From NCBI GenBank assembly GCA_036555105.1, contig DATBMA010000031.1, positions 1,325 through 65,324 of the forward strand: a stretch of DNA of 64,000 bases, given 5' to 3'. This document shows positions 1,258 through 60,615 of the stretch, one piece after another; within the stretch, counting starts at the first letter, position 1; every line of letters starts with the position of its first letter. The DNA comes from Acidimicrobiia bacterium. Its GTDB lineage: Bacteria; Actinomycetota; Acidimicrobiia; Spongiisociales; ZC4RG35. The notes under the pieces are model-generated. The model saw only the letters and a program-made list of their open reading frames with translations. It was not told where the DNA came from and made no database searches. Both the position numbers and the translations under genes were made by a program.

Positions 1258-1377
1258 GTCGCACGGTCGCACGGTCGCACGGTCTCGAGGTCGCGAGGTC
1301 TCGAGGTCGCGAGGTCTCACGGTCTCACGGTCGTGGGGTCACTGTGAGACGGTGCGACTGTGAGACTGTGAGTCTGT
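1258..1377. repeat. octamer tandem-repeat array A (15 units, orientation flips at about 1338)
   Basis: Units run GTCGCACG x3, GTCTCGAG/GTCGCGAG x4, GTCTCACG x2, GTCGTGGG, then the inverted units GTCACTGT GAGACGGT GCGACTGT GAGACTGT GAGTCTGT. The 8-bp register is unbroken. The holB stop is part of TGAGACC. Confidence 0.9.
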
Positions 1378-2671: not shown

Positions 2672-3720
2672 GCACCCCTTGGCCACTGGCGGCGAAAGTC
2701 GCCGGGAGAATGGCCGGGACCTACCCGCTGGCTGAGACCTATCACGGCAAGGAACTCGCCGCCACCATGCCTGGCATCACCATCCGGGCCGCGGAGCTGG
2801 TCCATGTCGAGACCGGGCTCGACGGCACCGGTGCCCCGGATGTGCTGGTCACCTCGCGGGCCGAGTGGGCCGAGCGCAATCTCTCCTCCTTTGCCCACCT
2901 CCTGGCCCCGTTGGAGGCGCGGATCGAGGAGCGCCTCAAGCAGGAGGACCGCAACAACTCGGCCTCAGCCGAGCTGGCCCGCAAGGTGGTGGCGGTGGAG
3001 GCTGGAGCACTCCTGGGCGCGCTGTCGCGTCGGGTTCTTGGCCAGTACGAGCTGGTGCTGCCGACCGGCGACTCTGGCGACGCCGTTGCCTTTGTCGGGG
3101 CCAACATCCTCGCCTTGGAGCGCCGGCATCAGTTTCGGCCCTCCGACTTCCGTATGTGGATCGCACTGCATGAGTCCACCCACCGGGCGCAGTTCGCGGG
3201 CGTGCCATGGCTTCGGTCCTACTTCCTGTCATTGGTCGAGGAGCTCGTCGCCAGCGCCAAGCCCGATCCAGGGAAACTCATGCGGGTGGTGGACGAGGTG
3301 GCTTCGGCCCGGCGAGAGCGCCGTCCGATCTTCGATGAGAACGGAGTCATCGGGCTGTTCGCCGGGGCCGAGCAGAAGGCAGTGCTCGACCGGGTCCAAG
3401 CTCTCATGTCCCTGCTCGAGGGCCACGGACACGTCGTGATGGATCGAATCGGGGCGCGGCTCTACAAGAGCCAGGCGCGCATGTCGGCAGTTCTCAGCGC
3501 CAGGCGGCGCGACCCGAAGACCGCGGCTCTCTTACGCATCGCCGGCCTGGAGATGAAGATGCGCCAGTACGAGCAGGGTGCTCGCTTCGTAAAGGGGGTC
3601 GAGCAGGCAGCCGGATGGGACCAGCTGGCACTGGCCTGGAAGGACCCCCAGTCCTTGCCCGACCTGGCTGAGATCGAGCAGCCCGAGAAATGGCTGGAGA
3701 GGGTCGGCTCCGCCGCCTGA
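2668..3720 (+). CDS. zinc-dependent metalloprotease-like protein (DUF2342 type)
   Basis: Contains a HExxH motif (ALHESTHRAQF). Its conserved position upstream of tilS matches other Actinobacteria. Confidence 0.75.
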   Translation: MSTPWPLAAKVAGRMAGTYPLAETYHGKELAATMPGITIRAAELVHVETGLDGTGAPDVLVTSRAEWAERNLSSFAHLLAPLEARIEERLKQEDRNNSASAELARKVVAVEAGALLGALSRRVLGQYELVLPTGDSGDAVAFVGANILALERRHQFRPSDFRMWIALHESTHRAQFAGVPWLRSYFLSLVEELVASAKPDPGKLMRVVDEVASARRERRPIFDENGVIGLFAGAEQKAVLDRVQALMSLLEGHGHVVMDRIGARLYKSQARMSAVLSARRRDPKTAALLRIAGLEMKMRQYEQGARFVKGVEQAAGWDQLALAWKDPQSLPDLAEIEQPEKWLERVGSAA

Positions 3721-5021
3721 GCGGGGCGGTATCCACCGCCGCCCGACCCGTCCTCAGTCAGATCGGGCCGCGGGTGGCAGTGGCGCTGAGCGGCGGTCCG
3801 GACTCGGCAGTGTGTGCGTGGGTCGCGCAGGAGCACGGAAGCGTCCCCCGGCTGGCCTACGTCCATCACGGTCTGCCCGCTTCCGATCAGATGCGGCGTG
3901 CCGCCGGGTCGATTGCCGCCCGCTTGGGGCTCGGGCTCGAAGTCCTCGAGATCTCAGGCTGGGGGAAGTCCGAGGGCAGGGCCCGGTCGGCTCGGTACGC
4001 GGCCTTGTTGGGGAACCTGGAACAGGGCGAGTGGCTGCTGACCGGCCACAACCTCGATGACCAGGCCGAGACGGTCCTTCTGAACCTGTTGCGGGGTTCG
4101 GGGCTCGAAGGGCTGGCGGGGATCCCCACGGTGAGGCCACCGGTCGCCAGGCCACTGTTGGATGTCAGACGCTCCGAGATCCGCGAGCTGGCGGGCCTGC
4201 TCGGCCTCCCATGGCGGGAGGACCCGGCCAATACGGACCAGGCGTTTCGCCGCAATCGCCTCCGCTCCGGGCTTATTCCACGCCTCGAGGCGGAGTGGAA
4301 CCCCAACCTGAGCGTCCGCCTCGCCTCGATGGCGCGTATGGCCGCCTCCGAGTCGGCCGCCATAGCCGATGACATCGTCGAACCGCTGGAGGACCGAGGG
4401 CATCTGCTGCTCCCGGCTGCAGCGCTGTGGGCAGTCGGAGATCGCCGAGCCAGGCACTCCATTCGGGCGGCATTGAGGCGGCTGCGGCCGCCCCACCCGC
4501 CATCTTCGGGCGAGCTCGCCGAGGTGCTGGGAGTTCTGACCGGTGAGCGAGGTCGCCTGACCATGAGCGACGGCGTTGAGGTCGTCCTGGATGGGCCATG
4601 GCTCGTCCTACAGCGCGGACCGACGTTGCCCGTCGAAGAGGCTCCCGTCGAGTGGGAGGTCCCTGGTCTGGTCGCCTGGGGTGGCTTCGAGCTCCAAGCC
4701 GAGGTGAGCGACCAGCGCCCGACCGCCTTTCCTCTCTCGCCATGGCGTGCGGTCATGGATGCTGAGCGGGTTCGCACACTCACAGTTCGGGCTCCGGCCG
4801 AATCGGACCTTCTCTCCGTGCCGGGAGGCTCCCAGCGACTCATCGAAGCCATCAAGTCGAGTGGCATCGACGGCCAGTCCGCCGCAGGCTGGCCGGTGGT
4901 CGAATCCGAAGGACAGATCGTCTGGGTCCCAGGGGTCCGTAGCCTCCCGGCGGGTTGGGTCGATGGATCGACTCGCCGCTACCTTTGGGTCTCGGCCGAG
5001 GAGGTGGTGTGGCCAAGGTGA
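3690..5021 (+). CDS. tilS: tRNA(Ile)-lysidine synthase
   Basis: Has a PP-loop SGGxDS (VALSGGPDSAV) and lies upstream of hpt. The start is uncertain; ATG 3690 overlaps the previous gene by 31 nt. Confidence 0.8.
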   Translation: MAGEGRLRRLSGAVSTAARPVLSQIGPRVAVALSGGPDSAVCAWVAQEHGSVPRLAYVHHGLPASDQMRRAAGSIAARLGLGLEVLEISGWGKSEGRARSARYAALLGNLEQGEWLLTGHNLDDQAETVLLNLLRGSGLEGLAGIPTVRPPVARPLLDVRRSEIRELAGLLGLPWREDPANTDQAFRRNRLRSGLIPRLEAEWNPNLSVRLASMARMAASESAAIADDIVEPLEDRGHLLLPAAALWAVGDRRARHSIRAALRRLRPPHPPSSGELAEVLGVLTGERGRLTMSDGVEVVLDGPWLVLQRGPTLPVEEAPVEWEVPGLVAWGGFELQAEVSDQRPTAFPLSPWRAVMDAERVRTLTVRAPAESDLLSVPGGSQRLIEAIKSSGIDGQSAAGWPVVESEGQIVWVPGVRSLPAGWVDGSTRRYLWVSAEEVVWPR

Positions 5022-5663: not shown

Positions 5664-7652
<1,989 letters not shown>

Positions 7653-9554: not shown

Positions 9555-10403
9555 GTGTTCGAGAGGTTCACCGACCGAGCCCGGCGGGTGGTGGTGCTGG
9601 CCCAGGAGCAGGCACGTGACCTCGACCACGGTTGGATCGGCACCGAGCATTTGCTCATCGGGTTGTTGGCGGATGAGGAAGGAACCGGCGGTGTGACTCT
9701 CCGGGAGCTCGGACTGGAGCTCGGGGCCACGCGCCAAGCAGTAGTGGAGATGGTCGGATCCGGAGAGAGCGGCGCTCCCGCCGGGCAGATTCCTTTCACG
9801 CCGCGAGCCAAGCGGGTGCTGGAATTGTCGCTCCGCGAGGCGATCAGCCTCGGAAGTGCCTATATCGGCACCGAGCACATCGCATTGGGGCTGATGCGGG
9901 AGGGGGAGGGGATCGCGGCACAGGTGGCGCGGTCGAAGAACATCGGGTACGACGAAGTCCGCGCCGCCGTCATCGCCCGCGGTGACACCCCCGACCCCGA
10001 GCTGGGCGGGAGCTTCAGGCGCCGCCGCCTCGGGCCTCAAACCTCCGATCGCATCAGTCTCAAGGGCATCGAGGTCTTTGCCCGCCACGGCGTCGAGGAG
10101 CACGAGAAGGAGACCGGCCAGATATTCGTAGTCGACGCGGAGCTCGAGCTCGACCTCGGCAAGGCCGGCGAGAGCGACGACCTGGCCGACACGGTGAGTT
10201 ACTGGGGAGTCGCTGCCATGGTTGCTTCCGTCGTTGCCAACGAGCGTTGGAACCTGATCGAGCGCGTGGCGGAGCGAGTAGCCGAAGAGTTGTTGTCCGA
10301 GCCCCGCGTCCGAGCGGTGACGGTGACGGTGCACAAACCAAACGCGCCAATGCCGGTCAAACTGGCGGACGTGGCGGTGACCATCCGTCGCAGGCGGGGA
10401 TGA
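9555..10403 (+). CDS. folB: Clp N-terminal (double Clp_N repeat) domain fused to dihydroneopterin aldolase
   Basis: Roughly aa 1-145 resemble the ClpC N-domain (MFERFTDRARRVVVLAQEQAR..IGTEH.. x2). Roughly aa 165-282 resemble FolB (GIEVFARHGV..E..GQIFVVD..TVSY..KPNAP). It is one uninterrupted ORF. Confidence 0.8.
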   Translation: MFERFTDRARRVVVLAQEQARDLDHGWIGTEHLLIGLLADEEGTGGVTLRELGLELGATRQAVVEMVGSGESGAPAGQIPFTPRAKRVLELSLREAISLGSAYIGTEHIALGLMREGEGIAAQVARSKNIGYDEVRAAVIARGDTPDPELGGSFRRRRLGPQTSDRISLKGIEVFARHGVEEHEKETGQIFVVDAELELDLGKAGESDDLADTVSYWGVAAMVASVVANERWNLIERVAERVAEELLSEPRVRAVTVTVHKPNAPMPVKLADVAVTIRRRRG

Positions 10404-18346: not shown

Positions 18347-18385
18347 GAGCCCACGCTAGGACGTGAAAAGGCCCGGTCCCGGGAC

Positions 18386-18425
18386 CTCGAGACCGTGCGA
18401 CCGTGCGACCTCGAGACTGTGAGAC
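18386..18425. repeat. octamer tandem-repeat array B (5 units)
   Basis: Units are CTCGAGAC CGTGCGAC CGTGCGAC CTCGAGAC TGTGAGAC. It lies 6 nt from the stop of the upstream (minus-strand) paralogue and is preceded by the palindrome GGTCCCGGGACC (18375-18386). Confidence 0.85.
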
Positions 18426-18431
18426 TTCCGT

Positions 18432-19043
18432 TCAGCCGTCGATGACGCGGGCCCGGTCGAACAGGGCCTGCTCGGCAGCCTGGGAAGCGACGTCCAGATA
18501 GTGGCTCGGCTCTCTGGTGGTGCCCTCGACCACCACCGACATGCCTATGCGGAGGTCGGTGGCGACCCCCTGTTCTGTGCCGAGGGCGGTGCGAAGGGCG
18601 GTGCGGAGCCGTGCTGCCACGATCGGTCCCCCCTCCCGAACGAAGTCGCGGAGCACGGCGGCGTACGTGCTCTCGTTGAGGCGGCCGGAGTCGTCCACTG
18701 CGCGCAGGGTTCCGATCATCGAGTTGGCAACGATCATTGCCAGCGGTTGGCGCTTCTCGGACGGAGCGAAGGCGAGTCCCGGGATCTGTAGCACCAGCAC
18801 CCCGAACGGCTCCCGCCTGCGCTCCCACCAGAGGCAGGCCCGCTTGATCGAGTCGATCAGTCCGTTGCGGTTCAGCAGGCCGGTGTCGACGTCGACCGGG
18901 ATGAACGCATCGATCGTCCTCCGCAGCCGTTCGATCTCCTCCCGCTGGCTGTCGAGTTGCTCCTCGAGCCGCTCAAAACGGGGATCAGAAACAGAGTTGA
19001 GATCGGCCAGGCCCCCCCACCCGGCGGCTTCAGCCGCGGTCAC
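18432..19043 (-). CDS. coiled-coil + degenerate GGDEF-like domain protein (paralogue 2)
   Basis: It has the same architecture as paralogue 1, with GGDEF replaced by LNESTY. Confidence 0.65.
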   Translation of the reverse strand: MTAAEAAGWGGLADLNSVSDPRFERLEEQLDSQREEIERLRRTIDAFIPVDVDTGLLNRNGLIDSIKRACLWWERRREPFGVLVLQIPGLAFAPSEKRQPLAMIVANSMIGTLRAVDDSGRLNESTYAAVLRDFVREGGPIVAARLRTALRTALGTEQGVATDLRIGMSVVVEGTTREPSHYLDVASQAAEQALFDRARVIDG

Positions 19044-20231: not shown

Positions 20232-22720
<2,489 letters not shown>

Positions 22721-22721
<1 letters not shown>

Positions 22722-22799
22722 TCGCACGGTCGCACGGTCGCACGGTCGCACGGTCGCACGGTCTCGCGGGCTCGCGGTCTCACGGTGAGACCGCGAGCC
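22721..22799. repeat. octamer tandem-repeat array C ending in a perfect 15-bp-stem palindrome
   Basis: GTCGCACG x5 is followed by GTCTCGCG GGCTCGCG GTCTCACG GTGAGACC GCGAGCC. The segment 22769-22799 is GGCTCGCGGTCTCAC-G-GTGAGACCGCGAGCC followed by TTT. The clpC TAG supplies the first G. Confidence 0.9.
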
Positions 22800-22879
22800 T
22801 TTGAGACCTATTCTTCTGTCGTCTGTCCCGGGCTCTGCGCGCTCTGCTCATCGTCGTAGCGGCCTATATCGCCGCCCAG

Positions 22880-24749: not shown

Positions 24750-24765
24750 TGGATTGAGGTGACCT

Positions 24766-24795
24766 GAGGGCTGCCGGGGACCGCCGGCAGCCCTC
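24766..24795 (+). other. intra-operon GC hairpin between the SBP and ATPase genes
   Basis: GAGGGCTGCCGG-GGACCG-CCGGCAGCCCTC forms a 12-bp stem. There is no U-tract, so it may be a transcript-stabilising or partial terminator element. Confidence 0.5.
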
Positions 24796-24824
24796 TGTCA
24801 AGCAGAGCGAGTCCTTTCAACGTC

Positions 24825-28825: not shown

Positions 28826-29761
28826 CTAGGGAGTGGCGGTGCCCGAGCCGAGATCGCCGGCCGGATAGCCGATCACCGCGATCTCTACGATCGCTAGGTC
28901 GTCGTACGGGGGCTCCTCACCGACCACCTCGGCCGGCCAGTCGCTCAGAACCGTTATCTCGAGAGTGTTGGTCCGGATCGCCGAGTACTCGTAACTATTG
29001 GTGCCGGGCTGGTCTTCAAGGGTTATCGGCACTTTGAGGGCGCTGTCCTCGGCGAGGAGAGTGATGCCCTTGGCCCGGAAGTTGCGTCGGAACCTGGTCT
29101 CGTCCTCGATGTTGCTCCAGTCGATGCGGGTGATGGTCATCGGCTGGTCGAAGGTAAGGGTGATCGTCACCTCCTTCTCGTTCTCGGGCAATTCGTTCCA
29201 GTTGATCTGGAACTCGCTTGGGTCGGAGTCGATCAGATTCGAGCACCCGAAACTTCCTCCCAGTCCCTCAGGCACGCAGGATGCGCTGAGAATGCTGATC
29301 GGCCCCGGGTTCTCGGCGCCGCCGGTGGTGCCTGACGTCTCTGAGGTCCCCGTGGTGGTGTCGGTGGTCTGGGCGGGTGCCCCGTCGCCTTTGAATACGT
29401 TGAACAGGAGGGCGATCAGGATCACACCCAGCAGCAGCGAGCTGATGGCGATGACTGCCCTGACTCCTGCCGGTGCCTGCACCGCCGGACGCGGCGCGAT
29501 GGGCAGGGGGCCCTGTTGAAGGCGGGCGCCGCACTCCTCACAGTGGCGGTTCGAAGCCGGATTGGGGTAGCTGCATGACGGACAGGCAACGGTTTCCGTC
29601 TTGCGTGAGCGTCCCCGCGGCTCCTCTTCGAGCTCGAACTCCTCGAACTCGTCATCCGGCTCGGGAGCGTTGGCGATCGGGTCCACCCACGTTCCGCATG
29701 TGGGGCAAAACTCCTCGTCAACAACGGTCGCCCCGCAGTTGGAGCATATGTGGCGCGCCAC
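28826..29761 (-). CDS. double zinc-ribbon / TM / Thr-rich linker / beta-sandwich (discoidin-like?) protein
   Basis: GTG 29761 gives VARHICSNCG..CPTCG and CPSCS..CEECG (two CxxC pairs each), one TM, and a C-terminal domain of about 190 aa. The upstream part of the listed ORF reads through repeat array D. Confidence 0.6.
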   Translation of the reverse strand: MARHICSNCGATVVDEEFCPTCGTWVDPIANAPEPDDEFEEFELEEEPRGRSRKTETVACPSCSYPNPASNRHCEECGARLQQGPLPIAPRPAVQAPAGVRAVIAISSLLLGVILIALLFNVFKGDGAPAQTTDTTTGTSETSGTTGGAENPGPISILSASCVPEGLGGSFGCSNLIDSDPSEFQINWNELPENEKEVTITLTFDQPMTITRIDWSNIEDETRFRRNFRAKGITLLAEDSALKVPITLEDQPGTNSYEYSAIRTNTLEITVLSDWPAEVVGEEPPYDDLAIVEIAVIGYPAGDLGSGTATP

Positions 29762-29800
29762 CAAATCACTTTCTCGCGGGCGGGTTATTGTGCCACGGCC

Positions 29801-29917
29801 GTGCCCTTGTGGGACATCAACACAGCGGAGCCGTGGACCCCGCTTTCGGTCCTCGCAGCTGTGATCTTGATCGGCGGATTCGTCTACTGGCTGGTCCGCC
29901 AGTCCCGGAAAGACTGA
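29801..29917 (+). CDS. candidate small membrane protein (36-38 aa), not in ORF track
   Basis: Translates to (V)PLWDINTAEPWTPLSVLAAVILIGGFVYWLVRQSRKD, with one clean TM and a basic tail. Its stop lies 5 nt before array D, matching the stop-codon rule of the other arrays. The start (GTG 29801 or TTG 29807) has no SD. Confidence 0.35.
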   Translation: MPLWDINTAEPWTPLSVLAAVILIGGFVYWLVRQSRKD

Positions 29918-29922
29918 AAGCG

Positions 29923-30010
29923 GTCGCACGGTCGCACGGTCGCACGGTCGCACGAGACCTCGAGACCGTGATACCTCGAGACCTTGAGGCCTCGAGACTG
30001 TGAGACCGTC
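29923..30010. repeat. octamer tandem-repeat array D (11 units)
   Basis: GTCGCACG x4 is followed by AGACCTCG AGACCGTG ATACCTCG AGACCTTG AGGCCTCG AGACTGTG AGACCGTC, all in one register. Confidence 0.9.
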
Positions 30011-30052
30011 TCACTTGGGCCGGGCGACCCGTCGAGCCGGTAGCCTTCCAAG

Positions 30053-31129: not shown

Positions 31130-31193
31130 GGTCCAAGGTCCCACGGTCCCCAGGTCTCACGGTGAGACCGCGTGACTGTGAGACTGTGAGACC
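31130..31193. repeat. octamer tandem-repeat array E (8 units, 4 forward + 4 inverted)
   Basis: Units are GGTCCAAG GTCCCACG GTCCCCAG GTCTCACG | GTGAGACC GCGTGACT GTGAGACT GTGAGACC. It starts 9 nt after the disA stop. Confidence 0.85.
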
Positions 31194-34886: not shown

Positions 34887-35099
34887 CTGGCAGAGTCTCA
34901 AAGTCTCACGTCGCACGTCTCATGACCAGGAGCTGAGACATGCTAGGTGGGGCCTGGGGCGGCTTCGATTGAGCGACTCGGGGATGGCCCGATCAAGACG
35001 AAAAGAGATCCGGCTTGCCCGCCGGCTCCATCGGGATGGTCATCGCCCCGCCCATAAACACCCCGGCGGCACCCACCACGGGCATCCAGGTCGGGTCCT

Positions 35100-41697: not shown

Positions 41698-41722
41698 GGC
41701 TTCGACGTCTGCCAAAGAGAAA

Positions 41723-41745
41723 GCCCCGGTGTGAACCACCGGGGC
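41723..41745. terminator. bidirectional terminator-like hairpin between convergent livF and the SBP gene
   Basis: GCCCCGGTG-TGAAC-CACCGGGGC forms a 9-bp stem. It is flanked by AAAGAGAAA on one side and CTTCTTC on the other. Confidence 0.6.
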
Positions 41746-41767
41746 CTTCTTCACTATTGACCTCAGG

Positions 41768-43972: not shown

Positions 43973-44084
43973 GTCTCACGGTCTCGAGGTCGCACAGTCT
44001 CGAAGTCTCGAGGCCTCGCGGTGCACTCAGTACTCCGGTGTGACCGTGTGAGGTGTGACCTTGAGACCTTGAGACCTTGAGACC
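43973..44084. repeat. octamer tandem-repeat array F (14 units) filling a convergent intergenic gap
   Basis: GTCTCACG GTCTCGAG GTCGCACA GTCTCGAA GTCTCGAG GCCTCGCG is followed by degenerate central units, then GTGTGACC and TTGAGACC x3. It runs from 1 nt after the alaX stop to 1 nt before the DUF1697 stop. Confidence 0.9.
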
Positions 44085-44085
44085 G

Positions 44086-49175: not shown

Positions 49176-49257
49176 AACACCGAGTGGCCGGGCCGGGAAT
49201 CTCACCAGATAGGGTGGGGCTCCCGGCCCCGCGGCCGCCCGTCGGACAAGGAGGCGT

Positions 49258-57143: not shown

Positions 57144-58378
57144 CCGAAACCGCCGATGTGGTGGTTGTGGGGGCGGGGATCATCGGGGCATCGATCGCAT
57201 ATCAGCTGGCGAGGCATGGAGCGGGACGGGTTGTGGCCCTCGACAAGGGCGAGGGCCCGGCCGAAGGTTCGACCGGCGCCTCCTCTTCCATCTGCCGTTG
57301 TCGTTACACGCATCCGGAGGTGGTGCGTACCGCTTTCCACGGCCAGGAGGCATTTGGCAACTGGGCGGCGTTCACCGGCCTCGACAACCCACGCTCGGGC
57401 CTGCGGCGCATCGGGGTGTTGTGGATGTTCGATCGCGATGCCGGCGCAGTGGGAAAGGACGCCGACCGCCTCACCCGTGAAGGGGTGAAGGCGGAGGTCG
57501 TCGGCCCTCAAGATGTAAGTGTCCGCTTTCCGGCTCTTTCGACCTGCGTCGAGCCGTTCGACCTCGATGGGGAAGTCGACCACGACTGCCGCCAAGGTGA
57601 AGCATTCCTGTTCGAGGCTGAGGGTGGCTACGCGGAGCCGACCGGCGCCAACCAGGACCTTATCGAGGCGACCGAACTGGCAGGAGGCGAGGTCAGGTTT
57701 CGCTCGAAGGTGTCGGCCGTGCGCAGGTCCGGTGGCAGGGTGATCGGCGTTGCCCTCGAGAGCGGCGAAACGCTCGACGCGGGGCTGGTGATAAACGCAG
57801 CCGGCCCTTGGTGCAATCGCCTCAACGAGCTGGCAGAAGTGGAGCTTCGTTGGACCCTCACCCCGACCCGGGTGCAGACCCTCTATCGGGATTGGCCTTC
57901 CGAGCTCGGCCGGTTGCCTGTGGGGGCGGACAGTTCTACTGGTATCTACTTCCGCCCTGAGCTCGGGACCGGTCAGGTGCTGGTCGGCTCGGTCCTCCCC
58001 GAAGACGAAGAGGAGATCGTGAGCGACCCGGATCACTTCAAGCGAGTCCCGGATCCGCCATTTCGGGAGCTGAAGATGGCTGCTTTCCACCACCGCGTAC
58101 CTGCCCTGGTCGCGCGAGGAGAGATTGGGGGCCTGGCCGGCCTCTACACGATCAACCGGGAAGACGTGCATCCCGTCCTCGGCCCCACCGGCCTGGATGG
58201 ATGGTGGGTGGCGAACGGGTTCTCCGGGCATGGCTTCAAGCTGGCTCCCGCCATCGGGTCGATGATCGCCCAGGCCGCAACCGGCCGGGCACTCGAGTAC
58301 GACACCGATGTCCCCATGGCTTTCTTCTCGGTCGACCGTCAGCCTCTCGACCTGTCCGTCAAGCACGTGCTGGCCTGA
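57140..58378 (+). CDS. FAD-dependent oxidoreductase (DAO/sarcosine-oxidase-beta-like)
   Basis: Has the dinucleotide fold VVVVGAGIIGASIAYQLA. The start codon is TTG. Confidence 0.8.
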   Translation: MTETADVVVVGAGIIGASIAYQLARHGAGRVVALDKGEGPAEGSTGASSSICRCRYTHPEVVRTAFHGQEAFGNWAAFTGLDNPRSGLRRIGVLWMFDRDAGAVGKDADRLTREGVKAEVVGPQDVSVRFPALSTCVEPFDLDGEVDHDCRQGEAFLFEAEGGYAEPTGANQDLIEATELAGGEVRFRSKVSAVRRSGGRVIGVALESGETLDAGLVINAAGPWCNRLNELAEVELRWTLTPTRVQTLYRDWPSELGRLPVGADSSTGIYFRPELGTGQVLVGSVLPEDEEEIVSDPDHFKRVPDPPFRELKMAAFHHRVPALVARGEIGGLAGLYTINREDVHPVLGPTGLDGWWVANGFSGHGFKLAPAIGSMIAQAATGRALEYDTDVPMAFFSVDRQPLDLSVKHVLA

Positions 58379-58423
58379 GACCATCGCACGGTGAGACGGT
58401 GCGACCGTGAGACCGTGCGTCGC
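58376..58423. repeat. octamer tandem-repeat array G (6 units, mixed orientation)
   Basis: Units are TGAGACCA TCGCACGG TGAGACGG TGCGACCG TGAGACCG TGCGTCGC. The first unit contains the stop codon of the FAD oxidoreductase. Confidence 0.8.
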
Positions 58424-58466
58424 GTTGACCACCTGAGGCCTCGTCGGACCGCTAAGGTCTCAACGC

Positions 58467-58526
58467 GTGAACAGCGTTCGCTTCTTCTATTACGCCTTTA
58501 CCTGGGCCGGGCCCGGGTCGGTGTGA
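58467..58526 (+). CDS. candidate aromatic-amino-acid leader peptide (19 aa): (M)NSVRFFYYAFTWAGPGSV
   Basis: GTG 58467 to TGA 58526. Six of 8 consecutive codons are Phe/Tyr/Trp. It lies upstream of a terminator-shaped hairpin and a chorismate mutase gene. It is not in the ORF track because it is too short. Confidence 0.6.
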   Translation: MNSVRFFYYAFTWAGPGSV

Positions 58527-59759: not shown

Positions 59760-60563
59760 ATGGAGCTAGCCATCGAGGCAATGGAGCTTGCCTTCTCTGA
59801 CGATCGCGAGGTGCCGGTTCGCTCCGCGGTGGGAGGAGTGTTGTTCATGCCGGGAAGGGTCGGCCCTCACCTGGGTCTCAAATCGGTCTCCACCGTCCCC
59901 GGCAATCCAGCCGGCATTGTGGTGCTGTTCGCACCAGACGGCTCGCCGGTTGGAATAGTCGACGGGCCCACGCTGACCGCCATCCGGACCGGGGCCGCGG
60001 CGGGCCTGGCGACTCGGCTCATGTCACCCCCGGAGGCAAGGGTCCTCGCCCTCCTGGGGGCCGGGGCAATGGCGGCGGATCAGGTGGCCGCGATCAGAGC
60101 CGTGCGTACGATCGAGCGCCTCTTGATATGGAGTCGGAACCCCGACCGGGCACGGGAGAAGGCCAAAGAACTGGGTGGCGAGGCCGTAGCCGATCCGCGC
60201 ACAGCGGTGAGCCAGGCAGACGTCATCAGCACGGTGACGCCTTCTGCCTCTCCGCTGTTCGGGGACTCCGACCTCGTGGCGAATGTGCACATCAACGCCA
60301 TGGGAGCTTTTACACCCGCCATGGTCGAGGTCCCCTCTGACACCGTCCGCCGCTCACTTGTGGTGGTCGACGACCTCGAGGCAGCCGCCGCCGAAGCCGG
60401 CGACCTTCTGCAGGCGGGACGCGTGGCTGATGGCACTATCTCCGACCTCTTGTCCGGACGGCTGTCGGTCTCGGGTGGAAGACCGACCCTGTTCAAGTCC
60501 GTCGGCATCGCCAGCCAGGACGTGGCGGCTGCTGCTGCCGCGCTGGGAGTCTTGAGAAGGTGA
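59760..60563 (+). CDS. ornithine cyclodeaminase / mu-crystallin family protein
   Basis: Contains TAIRTGAAAGLATRL, LGAGAMAADQVAAI (Rossmann) and HINAMGAF. Family-like N-terminal residues continue upstream of the ATG (see findings). Confidence 0.75.
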   Translation: MELAIEAMELAFSDDREVPVRSAVGGVLFMPGRVGPHLGLKSVSTVPGNPAGIVVLFAPDGSPVGIVDGPTLTAIRTGAAAGLATRLMSPPEARVLALLGAGAMAADQVAAIRAVRTIERLLIWSRNPDRAREKAKELGGEAVADPRTAVSQADVISTVTPSASPLFGDSDLVANVHINAMGAFTPAMVEVPSDTVRRSLVVVDDLEAAAAEAGDLLQAGRVADGTISDLLSGRLSVSGGRPTLFKSVGIASQDVAAAAAALGVLRR

Positions 60564-60615
60564 GACCGTGCGACCGTGAGACGGTGAGACCGTGAGACCG
60601 TGCGCCCGTGCGACC
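60560..60615. repeat. octamer tandem-repeat array H (7 units, single orientation)
   Basis: Units are GTGAGACC GTGCGACC GTGAGACG GTGAGACC GTGAGACC GTGCGCCC GTGCGACC. The array overlaps the OCD-like stop (TGA 60561) and ends at the base before the tyrA stop (60616). Confidence 0.9.

Follow-up and report, generated by a model that had tools for sequence, protein, structure and literature searches.

Octamer arrays behind stop codons

The window, that is, the whole 64-kb stretch of DNA analysed here, has a G+C content of 65% and carries eight intergenic arrays of tandem octamers, of the type GGTCGCAC, which adjoin the stop codons of its genes. The gene order comprises actinobacterial housekeeping functions, including holB, tRNA-Thr, an extracytoplasmic function (ECF) sigma factor, folate genes, ClpC, a Vut_1 transporter, an ABC transporter, DisA, CarD, IspF and CysS, among others. 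Among species-representative genomes, the closest ClpC matches were found in Acidimicrobiia metagenome-assembled genomes (MAGs; 72–79% identity), and the closest DisA match did not exceed 66% identity. Gene order and these best matches together indicate that the host probably belongs to an Acidimicrobiia-like lineage, which appears to have no close sequenced relative in that genome set. The organism was sampled through the 64-kb window and through metagenome contigs of less than 8 kb. A population set of independent Joint Genome Institute (JGI) and Logan metagenome contigs, 99.4–99.8% identical to the window, was retrieved by exact-protein look-ups and covers the first five arrays (A1–A5). Such look-ups with holB, the DUF1697 protein, the OCD-family protein and DAHP synthase gave no match; the start codons were probably called differently.

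For counting, a unit was defined as GTCKCRVG (forward) or its complement (inverted), with at most one mismatch allowed, and a run as at least three consecutive units. A scan of both strands gave 12 runs with 66 units at eight loci, or 76 units when two-unit runs are included. In 100 order-3 Markov simulations of the window, the mean number of runs of at least three units was 0.05 and the maximum was 1. A period scan ignoring the unit sequence detected six period-8 segments in the window and none at periods 5–7 and 9–12, and 1.35 Mb of control DNA around ClpC of 80 other genomes contained a single period-8 segment. Tandem Repeats Finder (TRF) and direct reading likewise showed a strict 8-nt period, with 16 and 24 nt as the only higher-order periods. 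The units abut directly without spacers, and a single unit is not palindromic. Alignment of 73 units shows about 90% constancy at positions 1, 2, 3, 5 and 8 (G, T, C, C and G) and variation at positions 4, 6 and 7. Most exact copies of the common octamers are located in the arrays (GTCGCACG, 16 of 18; GTCTCACG, 8 of 9; GTCTCGAG, 9 of 11), and outside the arrays octamers occur at or below the composition expectation. Some unit variants are private to a locus, with GTCCNNNG found only in A5 and TTGAGACC only in A6. An assembly artefact is excluded, because the independent JGI and Logan assemblies hold the same arrays. The finding is statistically robust and real, and all eight arrays of the preliminary description were recovered at their coordinates by direct reading, TRF and the unit scan.

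All eight arrays are intergenic and lie 0–9 nt from the stop codon of a gene, none being located within a gene. A1 (1251–1377) includes the holB stop TGA (1251–1253), which lies inside TGAGACC, and consists of ten forward units (1258–1337) followed by inverted units (1343–1377); tRNA-Thr begins 48 nt downstream. A2 (18378–18425, minus strand) lies 6 nt past the stop (18432–18434) of a 203-aa minus-strand gene and, read on the gene strand, comprises five forward units and a degenerate inverted unit within the palindrome GGTCCCGGGACC, behind which lies GGGCCTTTT; 31 nt separate the array from the next start (18346). The first G of A3 (22719–22807) is supplied by the ClpC stop TAG, and three inverted units come after its eight forward ones, with Vut_1, the next gene, starting 72 nt away. 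A4 (29923–30014) begins 5 nt past the TGA of a predicted 55-aa open reading frame (ORF) and contains four GTCGCACG units and then about seven inverted ones, with the DisA start 38 nt downstream. A5 (31130–31193), 9 nt past the DisA stop, has four degenerate forward units of the GTCCNNNG type and four inverted units, and the CarD start follows after 20 nt. A6 (43973–44085) spans the entire 114-nt gap between the convergent genes for an AlaX-like protein (plus strand, stop 43971) and a DUF1697 protein (minus strand, stop 44086); its six forward units are separated by a 39-nt centre from about six inverted ones. The first unit of A7 (58376–58423) begins with the TGA stop of a DAO-family oxidoreductase gene; its units are mostly inverted, a second hairpin lies at 58421–58468 and the next start is at 170 nt. 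A8 (60551–60615) consists of eight units of the same orientation that fill the 52-nt gap between the convergent genes for an OCD-family protein (plus strand) and prephenate dehydrogenase (minus strand, stop 60616). The last codons of the OCD-family gene are encoded by its degenerate first unit, and the stop (60561–60563) lies inside the second.

Five of the eight arrays (1258, 22721, 29923, 31130 and 43973) are clearly forward-then-inverted, and all five have the same polarity, 5'-GGTC...GACC-3'. The earlier view that most arrays have this layout holds for these five; it does not apply to 18378 (on the gene strand, five forward units with a single degenerate inverted one), 58376 (mostly inverted) and 60551 (single orientation). 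An 8-bp register unbroken across orientation flips was also claimed, but the phase offsets between forward and inverted runs at four loci are 5, 7, 4 and 7, showing no constraint. Nor could a rule be found that ties unit orientation to the upstream gene, since forward-then-inverted arrays are equal on both strands and the single-orientation arrays contradict each other. A supposed decayed copy at 34893–34935, upstream of the minus-strand tRNA-Thr, contains only two consecutive recognisable units. This is within chance, as about 5.5 two-unit runs are expected per simulated window, and we exclude it from the family. Coding repeats are ruled out as well: the ORFs with MRPCDRATV-type translations, already suspected to be spurious, are the translated complement of the repeat.

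The flanking ORFs were checked by Pfam and by the gene calls carried by the metagenome contigs. The stops at 1251, 22719, 58376 and 60561 are the true stops of the Pfam-supported holB, ClpC, DAO-family oxidoreductase and OCD-family genes, respectively. Because ClpC homologues align through the final residues of the protein, the ClpC stop at the array edge is the natural one. The stop on the 29917 side of A4 belongs only to the predicted 55-aa ORF. Counted by array, the stop-to-array distance is 0 nt at 1258, 6 nt at 18378, 0 nt at 22721, 5 nt at 29923, 9 nt at 31130 and 0 nt at 58376; for the convergent pairs, it is 0–1 nt at both ends of 43973 and 0 nt at both ends of 60551. As two arrays fill convergent gaps, ten gene ends are abutted. 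In the five co-directional gaps (A1, A2, A3, A5 and A7), 4, 6, 0, 9 and 0 nt separate the array from the stop, as compared to 48, 31, 72, 20 and 170 nt from the next start, which corresponds to P = 6e-5 for random placement inside these gaps. The abutment of stop codons reported in the preliminary description is thus borne out for all eight arrays.

The arrays are found at borders of functionally unrelated genes (holB/tRNA, ClpC/Vut_1, DisA/CarD and DAO/DAHP synthase), and the gene map shows none in the tightly packed operons of the window. A2, A4 and A5 end just 20–38 nt ahead of the next start codon. As this leaves little room for a promoter, transcription probably runs on through these three arrays, and they are better explained as an intercistronic barrier or attenuator than as a full terminator.

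The small ORF that ends 5 nt before A4 (29750–29917, plus strand, with its start probably near 29807) has no Pfam hit, and its C-terminal half (EPWTPLSVLAAVILIGGFVYWLVRQSRKD) resembles a transmembrane helix with a basic tail. Near-identical contigs have it annotated as a gene of 55 aa, and in a relative from JGI sample 3300043331 an ORF of 36 aa occupies the equivalent place.

Folding and a putative role at message ends

Predicted folds were scored as z-scores relative to dinucleotide shuffles. The forward-plus-inverted arrays form long stems of -36 to -68 kcal/mol, with z-scores of -2.5 to -5.9. A1 reaches -68.4 kcal/mol on the plus strand (z -2.5) versus -53.8 kcal/mol on the minus strand, and A6 reaches -67.8 kcal/mol (z -5.9); the z-scores are -3.7 for A3, -2.6 (plus strand) and -3.7 (minus strand) for A4, and -4.7 for A5. 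A3 ends in a perfect 13–15-bp hairpin (GGCTCGCGGTCTCAC/GTGAGACCGCGAGCC) followed by a T-rich stretch (TTTGAGACCTATTCTTCTGT), and A2 ends in GGTCTCGAGGTCCCGGGACC and then GGGCCTTTT. T-rich tails are present only at these two arrays, and a consensus terminator scan flagged no array. Canonical terminators consisting of a hairpin and a T-tract are not enriched in the window (9 found versus 7.8 expected). Array-free gaps past stop codons hold ordinary GC-rich hairpins, for example at 24750–24824, 41698–41767 and 49176–49257, so the arrays sit where the window otherwise places plain hairpins. Among the three roomy convergent gaps, two contain arrays and one contains a classical bidirectional hairpin. 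A riboswitch or other Rfam family is ruled out, as Rfam 15 at the gathering score returned only three tRNAs in the window and matched no array.

Based on position and folding, we propose, with a probability of about 0.5, that the arrays are RNA hairpin barriers in 3' untranslated regions or between cistrons, remodelled by slippage and resembling repetitive extragenic palindromic (REP) sequences, their clusters known as bacterial interspersed mosaic elements (BIMEs), and short tandemly repeated repetitive (STRR) sequences. The family would consist of lineage-specific extragenic modular hairpins, in which tandem GGTC-K-C-R-M octamers, usually followed by inverted units, are placed directly past stop codons. 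In the transcript, the forward and inverted arms would pair into a long GC-rich stem with several possible registers. At the 3' end of the upstream cistron, this stem could act as a barrier through RNA polymerase pausing or partial termination, and through a block to 3'-to-5' exonucleases. It would thereby insulate or differentially stabilise the upstream message, comparable to E. coli REP/BIME and to the role proposed for cyanobacterial STRR. Because the stems begin 0–9 nt past the stop, a terminating ribosome would have to open the stem base, with a possible effect on termination or ribosome release. Replication slippage would continue to reshape array length and register. The shared unit core and the uniform 5'-GGTC...GACC-3' polarity speak for common descent, or for copying from one locus to another, and against separate origins.

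The simpler idea of a terminator or 3'-end stabiliser, raised in the preliminary description, could plausibly fit the position and the predicted folding of five to six arrays. It cannot be general to the family in its simple form, since A8 (60551) and the A2 region (18378) as a whole do not fold above shuffles. The long hairpins expected in the preliminary description are predicted for the five forward-then-inverted arrays.

Several observations weigh against the barrier function that we propose. The single-orientation array A8 has z-scores of -0.6 and -0.4, the A2 region has an overall z-score of 0.8, with a distal hairpin and T-tract visible, and A7 folds weakly (z -1.4 on the plus strand and -2.8 on the minus strand); the hairpin is therefore not universal among the arrays. 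The two arms of A4, GTCGCACG forward and CTCGAGAC inverted, are not complementary to each other, so that they pair only partially. G-U pairs give the sense strand an excess stability of 14.6 kcal/mol at A1 and 8.6 kcal/mol at A6, but this excess is absent or reversed at A3–A5 and A7. Because of this inconsistent strand asymmetry, selection at the RNA level, over symmetry at the DNA level, is suggested rather than demonstrated. Stems of 40–50 bp could serve as RNase III substrates and destabilise the message instead. Moreover, the approximately 90% conserved core (G1, T2, C3, C5 and G8 in 73 units) is unexplained by a pairing requirement alone.

As structure or repeat begins inside the footprint of a ribosome positioned at the stop codon, the arrays could also be translation-linked elements, which would modulate termination, ribosome release or ribosome rescue and thereby the yield of the upstream protein, with unit number as a tuning knob. 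Liang, Rudd and Deutscher reportedly found in 2015 that E. coli REP elements within about 15 nt of stop codons modulate upstream protein yield via translation. In line with such a role, the stop codon is itself part of a repeat unit in four arrays, every inverted unit contains TGA, so that three units stop all three frames on that strand, and the units nearest the stop are the most variable. Nevertheless, we consider this explanation very improbable, because the stop-proximal units of A3 are unpaired in the predicted fold, where the hairpin starts about 48 nt downstream, and because it leaves the long distal arms unexplained.

Unit gain and loss among near-identical strains

Comparison of the population contigs revealed whole-unit differences at three of the five arrays covered. 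A4 contains two, three or four copies of GTCGCACG among eight assemblies, with each state occurring in at least two independent assemblies. Its copy number differs on both haplotypes of the adjoining A5, which points to recurrent change. At A3, five assemblies showed four gap lengths (158, 150, 142 and 134 nt), corresponding to 5–8 forward units. The A3 alleles order GTCTCACG, GTCGCACG and GTCTCGCG differently over the 2–5 variable leading units and share the same hairpin arm and flanks. At the place where the other alleles have GTCTCGCG, the window allele has GGCTCGCG, a perfect pairing partner for the CGCGAGCC arm. Two A1 alleles are equal in total length, although a unit-sized stretch of 9 nt has been gained, one 8-nt unit lost and 1 nt deleted between them. 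Unit number is constant at A5, where two alleles differ by a 1-nt indel and a single-nucleotide polymorphism (SNP), and at A2, where nine contigs showed one SNP. The whole-unit differences at A1, A3 and A4 among contigs of 99.4–99.8% identity demonstrate slipped-strand gain and loss of units. The arrays thus behave as a variable number tandem repeat (VNTR), as had been suspected from their short period, with unit changes at 29923, 22721 and 1258. Change is fastest in the homogeneous GTCGCACG runs beside the stop codon, and the distal hairpin part is kept at 22721, the sole array allowing this comparison.

This behaviour also fits a neutral or selfish by-product, that is, slippage-prone, microsatellite-like DNA without function, perhaps seeded by a mobile hairpin similar to REP doublets (REPINs) or miniature inverted-repeat transposable elements (MITEs). 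Such DNA would persist only at sites where it is harmless, and the placement behind stop codons would then result from purifying selection against insertion into genes and promoters, combined with a deletion bias that removes spacers. Copy number and unit composition vary freely among the near-identical strains, the private variants GTCCNNNG (A5) and TTGAGACC (A6) indicate local amplification, and a single-orientation array exists (A8). In addition, the octamer family was not found at the nearest Acidimicrobiia ClpC loci sampled (72–79% identity), at least two of which bear different heptamer arrays, and other lineages have octamer families of their own. That all ten gene ends lie within 0–9 nt (P about 6e-5) is, however, tighter than avoidance of harm predicts. 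Furthermore, the hairpin part or the total length can persist during unit turnover, as in the A1 alleles of equal length and the constant A3 hairpin, where one change restores pairing. Neither a transposase nor a target-site duplication or empty site was seen, in data hardly able to show these; the Pfam-scanned ORFs, a subset of all ORFs in the window, likewise gave no transposase match. On balance, we regard a purely neutral or selfish origin as rather unlikely, though deserving serious consideration.

In the relative from JGI sample 3300043331, DisA belongs to the same 90%-identity cluster, and 176 nt lie between DisA and CarD, compared to 93–95 nt; the relative also has the 36-aa ORF before DisA mentioned above. 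Judged by this spacing, a sister lineage seems to have an array of much greater length at the A5 position.

Several metagenome contigs break at the arrays: L227 ends in A5, L228 starts in A4, and L367 and L368 start just past A1. This is consistent with a repeat that is frequent throughout the genome and confounds short-read assembly. In practice, the arrays thus break metagenome assemblies and create spurious ORFs, and they could be used as strain-typing markers for this uncultured Acidimicrobiia lineage.

Related repeats in known systems and other genomes

STRR and other short tandem repeats of dispersed occurrence have been on record since 1990 and still await a functional explanation. The window offers an unusually clean case, with strict placement at stop codons, a modular forward/inverted layout and natural alleles that differ by whole units in otherwise identical backgrounds. 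Function is thereby directly testable, by relating unit number and arm symmetry to read-through, mRNA 3' ends and the half-life of the upstream mRNA. To our knowledge, strict stop-codon abutment and population-level gain and loss of units have not been documented in the same way for STRR. STRR heptamers form hairpins between cistrons, with transcript stabilisation or translational coupling as proposed roles and an unknown function (PMC2670836). Like the window arrays, they consist of very short tandem units at many non-coding loci, often in both orientations and with hairpin potential (PMC2670836); unlike them, they are heptamers of unrelated sequence from a different phylum, the heterocyst-forming cyanobacteria. 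The window arrays thus share with STRR a common unit over many non-coding loci and both orientations with hairpin potential. Their unit is strictly 8 nt instead of approximately 7 nt, which fits only a class widened to 7–8 nt, and the window points to Acidimicrobiia instead of a heterocystous cyanobacterium as the host.

REP/BIME elements of Enterobacteria and Pseudomonas stabilise upstream mRNA and attenuate transcription. They resemble the window arrays in being extragenic, located past stops or between cistrons, clustered in alternating orientation into GC-rich stems and present in many genomic copies. The extragenic 3'-end or intercistronic location applies to all eight arrays. A REP, however, comprises one imperfect palindrome, approximately 35 bp long and bearing a conserved head of the GTAG type, and is mobilised by REP-associated tyrosine transposases (RAYTs). 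The window arrays lack a 30–40 bp palindrome with such a head and consist of a non-palindromic 8-bp unit, repeated 3–10 times and evolving by slippage. Mycobacterial interspersed repetitive units (MIRUs) are 40–100 bp long, occur as direct repeats only, may carry small ORFs and form no hairpins. The mycobacterial MIRU-VNTR loci share with the window arrays an actinobacterial host, intergenic location and variable copy number, and they often lie in operons, touching the flanking stop and start codons. Identity with MIRU-VNTR is ruled out by the period of 8 (higher-order 16 and 24) as opposed to units of 40–100 bp. CRISPRs are ruled out by contiguous units as opposed to repeats of 24–48 bp with unique spacers. 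The preliminary description was thus correct, by unit length, spacing and palindromy, in not recognising a described REP/BIME, MIRU or CRISPR type. It overlooked the closest relatives, namely STRR heptamers, the TAACTGA repeats of Beggiatoaceae and the paired octanucleotides of Geobacter metallireducens. The arrays fail the defining features of REP, MIRU, CRISPR and classical STRR, yet they behave like short dispersed repeats. A search of the literature on octamer or 8-bp tandem repeats yielded no description of the window family.

TAACTGA heptamer direct repeats occur in Beggiatoaceae, Cyanobacteria and Bacteroidetes, a few nucleotides upstream of start codons (MacGregor 2015; PMC4679880). 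Like the window arrays, they are abundant intergenic short direct repeats that are patchily distributed in the phylogeny and suspected to act post-transcriptionally; a set contains 2 to 43 copies (PMC4679880). In contrast to the window arrays, which abut stop codons and are mostly forward-plus-inverted, the TAACTGA repeats precede starts and are nearly always direct only. In G. metallireducens, octanucleotides of the form GTTGCTYN x4 are paired on opposite strands and have been interpreted as binding sites for integration host factor (IHF) or HU (Aklujkar et al. 2009; PMC2700814). They share with the window arrays the tandem octanucleotides, opposite-strand pairs at variable distance, multicopy and lineage-specific occurrence and an unknown function (PMC2700814). 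They differ in unit sequence, in their fixed number of four units and in the insertion sequences nearby, and neither a link with stop codons nor a variable copy number was described for them (PMC2700814). Opposite-strand pairing of this kind is found in five of the eight window arrays, where unit number is not fixed at four.

By analogy with IHF/HU at the G. metallireducens octanucleotides, the arrays could be double-stranded DNA sites for a sequence-specific protein that reads GGTC-N-C at 8-bp spacing, with a nucleoid-associated protein or global regulator and a replication or segregation factor as candidates. Five of the eight unit positions are about 90% invariant across loci, with positions 4, 6 and 7 variable, and the motif is retained in single-orientation arrays. 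Paired inverted arrays of related GGTYKC-type octamers (GGTCTCGC, GGTTGCGC, GGTTGCTG and GGTCGCAA) are also present in Thermoanaerobaculia and Vicinamibacteria, as are GTTGCTYN pairs in Geobacter (PMC2700814). However, the likeness of units across phyla is partly imposed by the search pattern, and unit number is free to vary between strains. In addition, the 8-bp period turns successive sites to different faces of the helix, and there is no evident reason why a DNA-binding regulator should have its sites past stop codons. Since neither single units nor short sites turned up in promoters or in other parts of the window, the protein-binding array that had been considered earlier is unsupported, and we judge it improbable.

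A search of 185,579 species genomes for exact GTCGCACG x3 gave 43 loci, which are spread over many phyla and hold a single array each. A control octamer x3, the reversed unit, gave 63 loci; the window unit is therefore not special as such, which also speaks for the neutral or selfish origin discussed above. The unusual trait is the density of arrays within one lineage. Metagenome contigs searched with a degenerate 3.5-unit pattern gave 69 loci, none of them from the organism of the window. A degenerate four-unit scan detected forward-spacer-inverted octamer arrays with units GGTCTCGC, GGTTGCGC and GGTCGCAA in Thermoanaerobaculia and Vicinamibacteria. In an automated test in other genomes, approximately 32% of arrays abutted stops of long ORFs versus 9% of random positions. 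We discount this result, because the TGA of inverted units, present in all frames, truncates spurious long ORFs in high-GC DNA. The octamer GGTTGCTG, which flanks GGTCTCGC arrays in Thermoanaerobaculia, fits the GTTGCTYN 'class 1' paired sites of G. metallireducens.

These occurrences allow the tentative view that the window arrays are an instance of a widespread, unnamed class, in which inverted pairs of tandem 7–8-nt units, often with a GGTYKC-type core, lie past stop codons in Actinomycetota, Acidobacteriota, Planctomycetota, Desulfobacterota and cyanobacteria. Such arrays would share a mechanism, either an RNA- or DNA-binding factor or hairpin-templated expansion, and would act as slippage-tuned 3'-end or termination modules. 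We consider this generalisation quite doubtful. If the cross-phylum pattern were true, a slippage-tunable class would join the bacterial 3'-end elements, notably in high-GC phyla with scarce canonical terminators.

Arrays with a forward part, a unique spacer and an inverted part were observed in Thermoanaerobaculia (L181:3620–3860 and 7220–7460; L213:6380–6690; L124, L141 and L151). Further forward-spacer-inverted octamer loci were L159 and L179 (Vicinamibacteria MAG MFD00392.bin.3.577) and L200. In L181 and L213, a second octamer family, GGTTGCTG/CAGCAACC, is nested palindromically with these arrays, and either of the two can be the outer one. In L141:1–648 and L159:1817–4294, from two classes of Acidobacteriota, an octamer array lies 2 nt past the TAG of an FtsX/MacB-type permease gene, the protein ending in ...EALRYE or ...KALHYE. 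Either a shared position or chance among abundant paralogues could account for this. Inverted-then-forward arrays surround segments of 0.5–4 kb at L280:22–181 and 4008–4135, L243/L245:4035–4130 and 4621–4668, and L125:2296–2554 and 3090–3224. Their polarity is opposite to that of the window hairpins, and they may simply be 3'-end arrays of neighbouring genes.

Heptamer arrays were found in an Acidimicrobiia MAG (L044, 3169–3309 and 24–82), where (GCTTTCA)3, (GCTGTCN)5 and (GCAGCAA)6 begin 24 nt past the ClpC stop, and in a second one (L047:14526–14560), where (AGTCCCT)n immediately follows a probable stop codon, an unannotated TAA. In a Phycisphaeraceae MAG (L095:16475–16577), (GAGTTCC)n is arranged forward and then inverted. 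STRR-like heptamer repeats thus occur beyond cyanobacteria.

Within the window, an ORF at 9555–10403 (plus strand) joins N-terminal Clp_N repeats to a FolB dihydroneopterin aldolase domain, an odd domain pairing inside a folE-folP-folB cluster, unless its start codon has been miscalled. The reversed octamer was rejected as a neutral baseline, as it matched a separate dispersed family, (GCTGGCAC)n, of Sorangium and Alcanivorax. This family occupies many loci in Sorangium, Alloalcanivorax and Alcanivorax, with up to 41 copies (L302–L364, e.g. L307:4873–4934, L337:6507–6836 and L305:471–535), and its unit GCTGGCAC includes TGGCAC, the -24 element of sigma-54 promoters.

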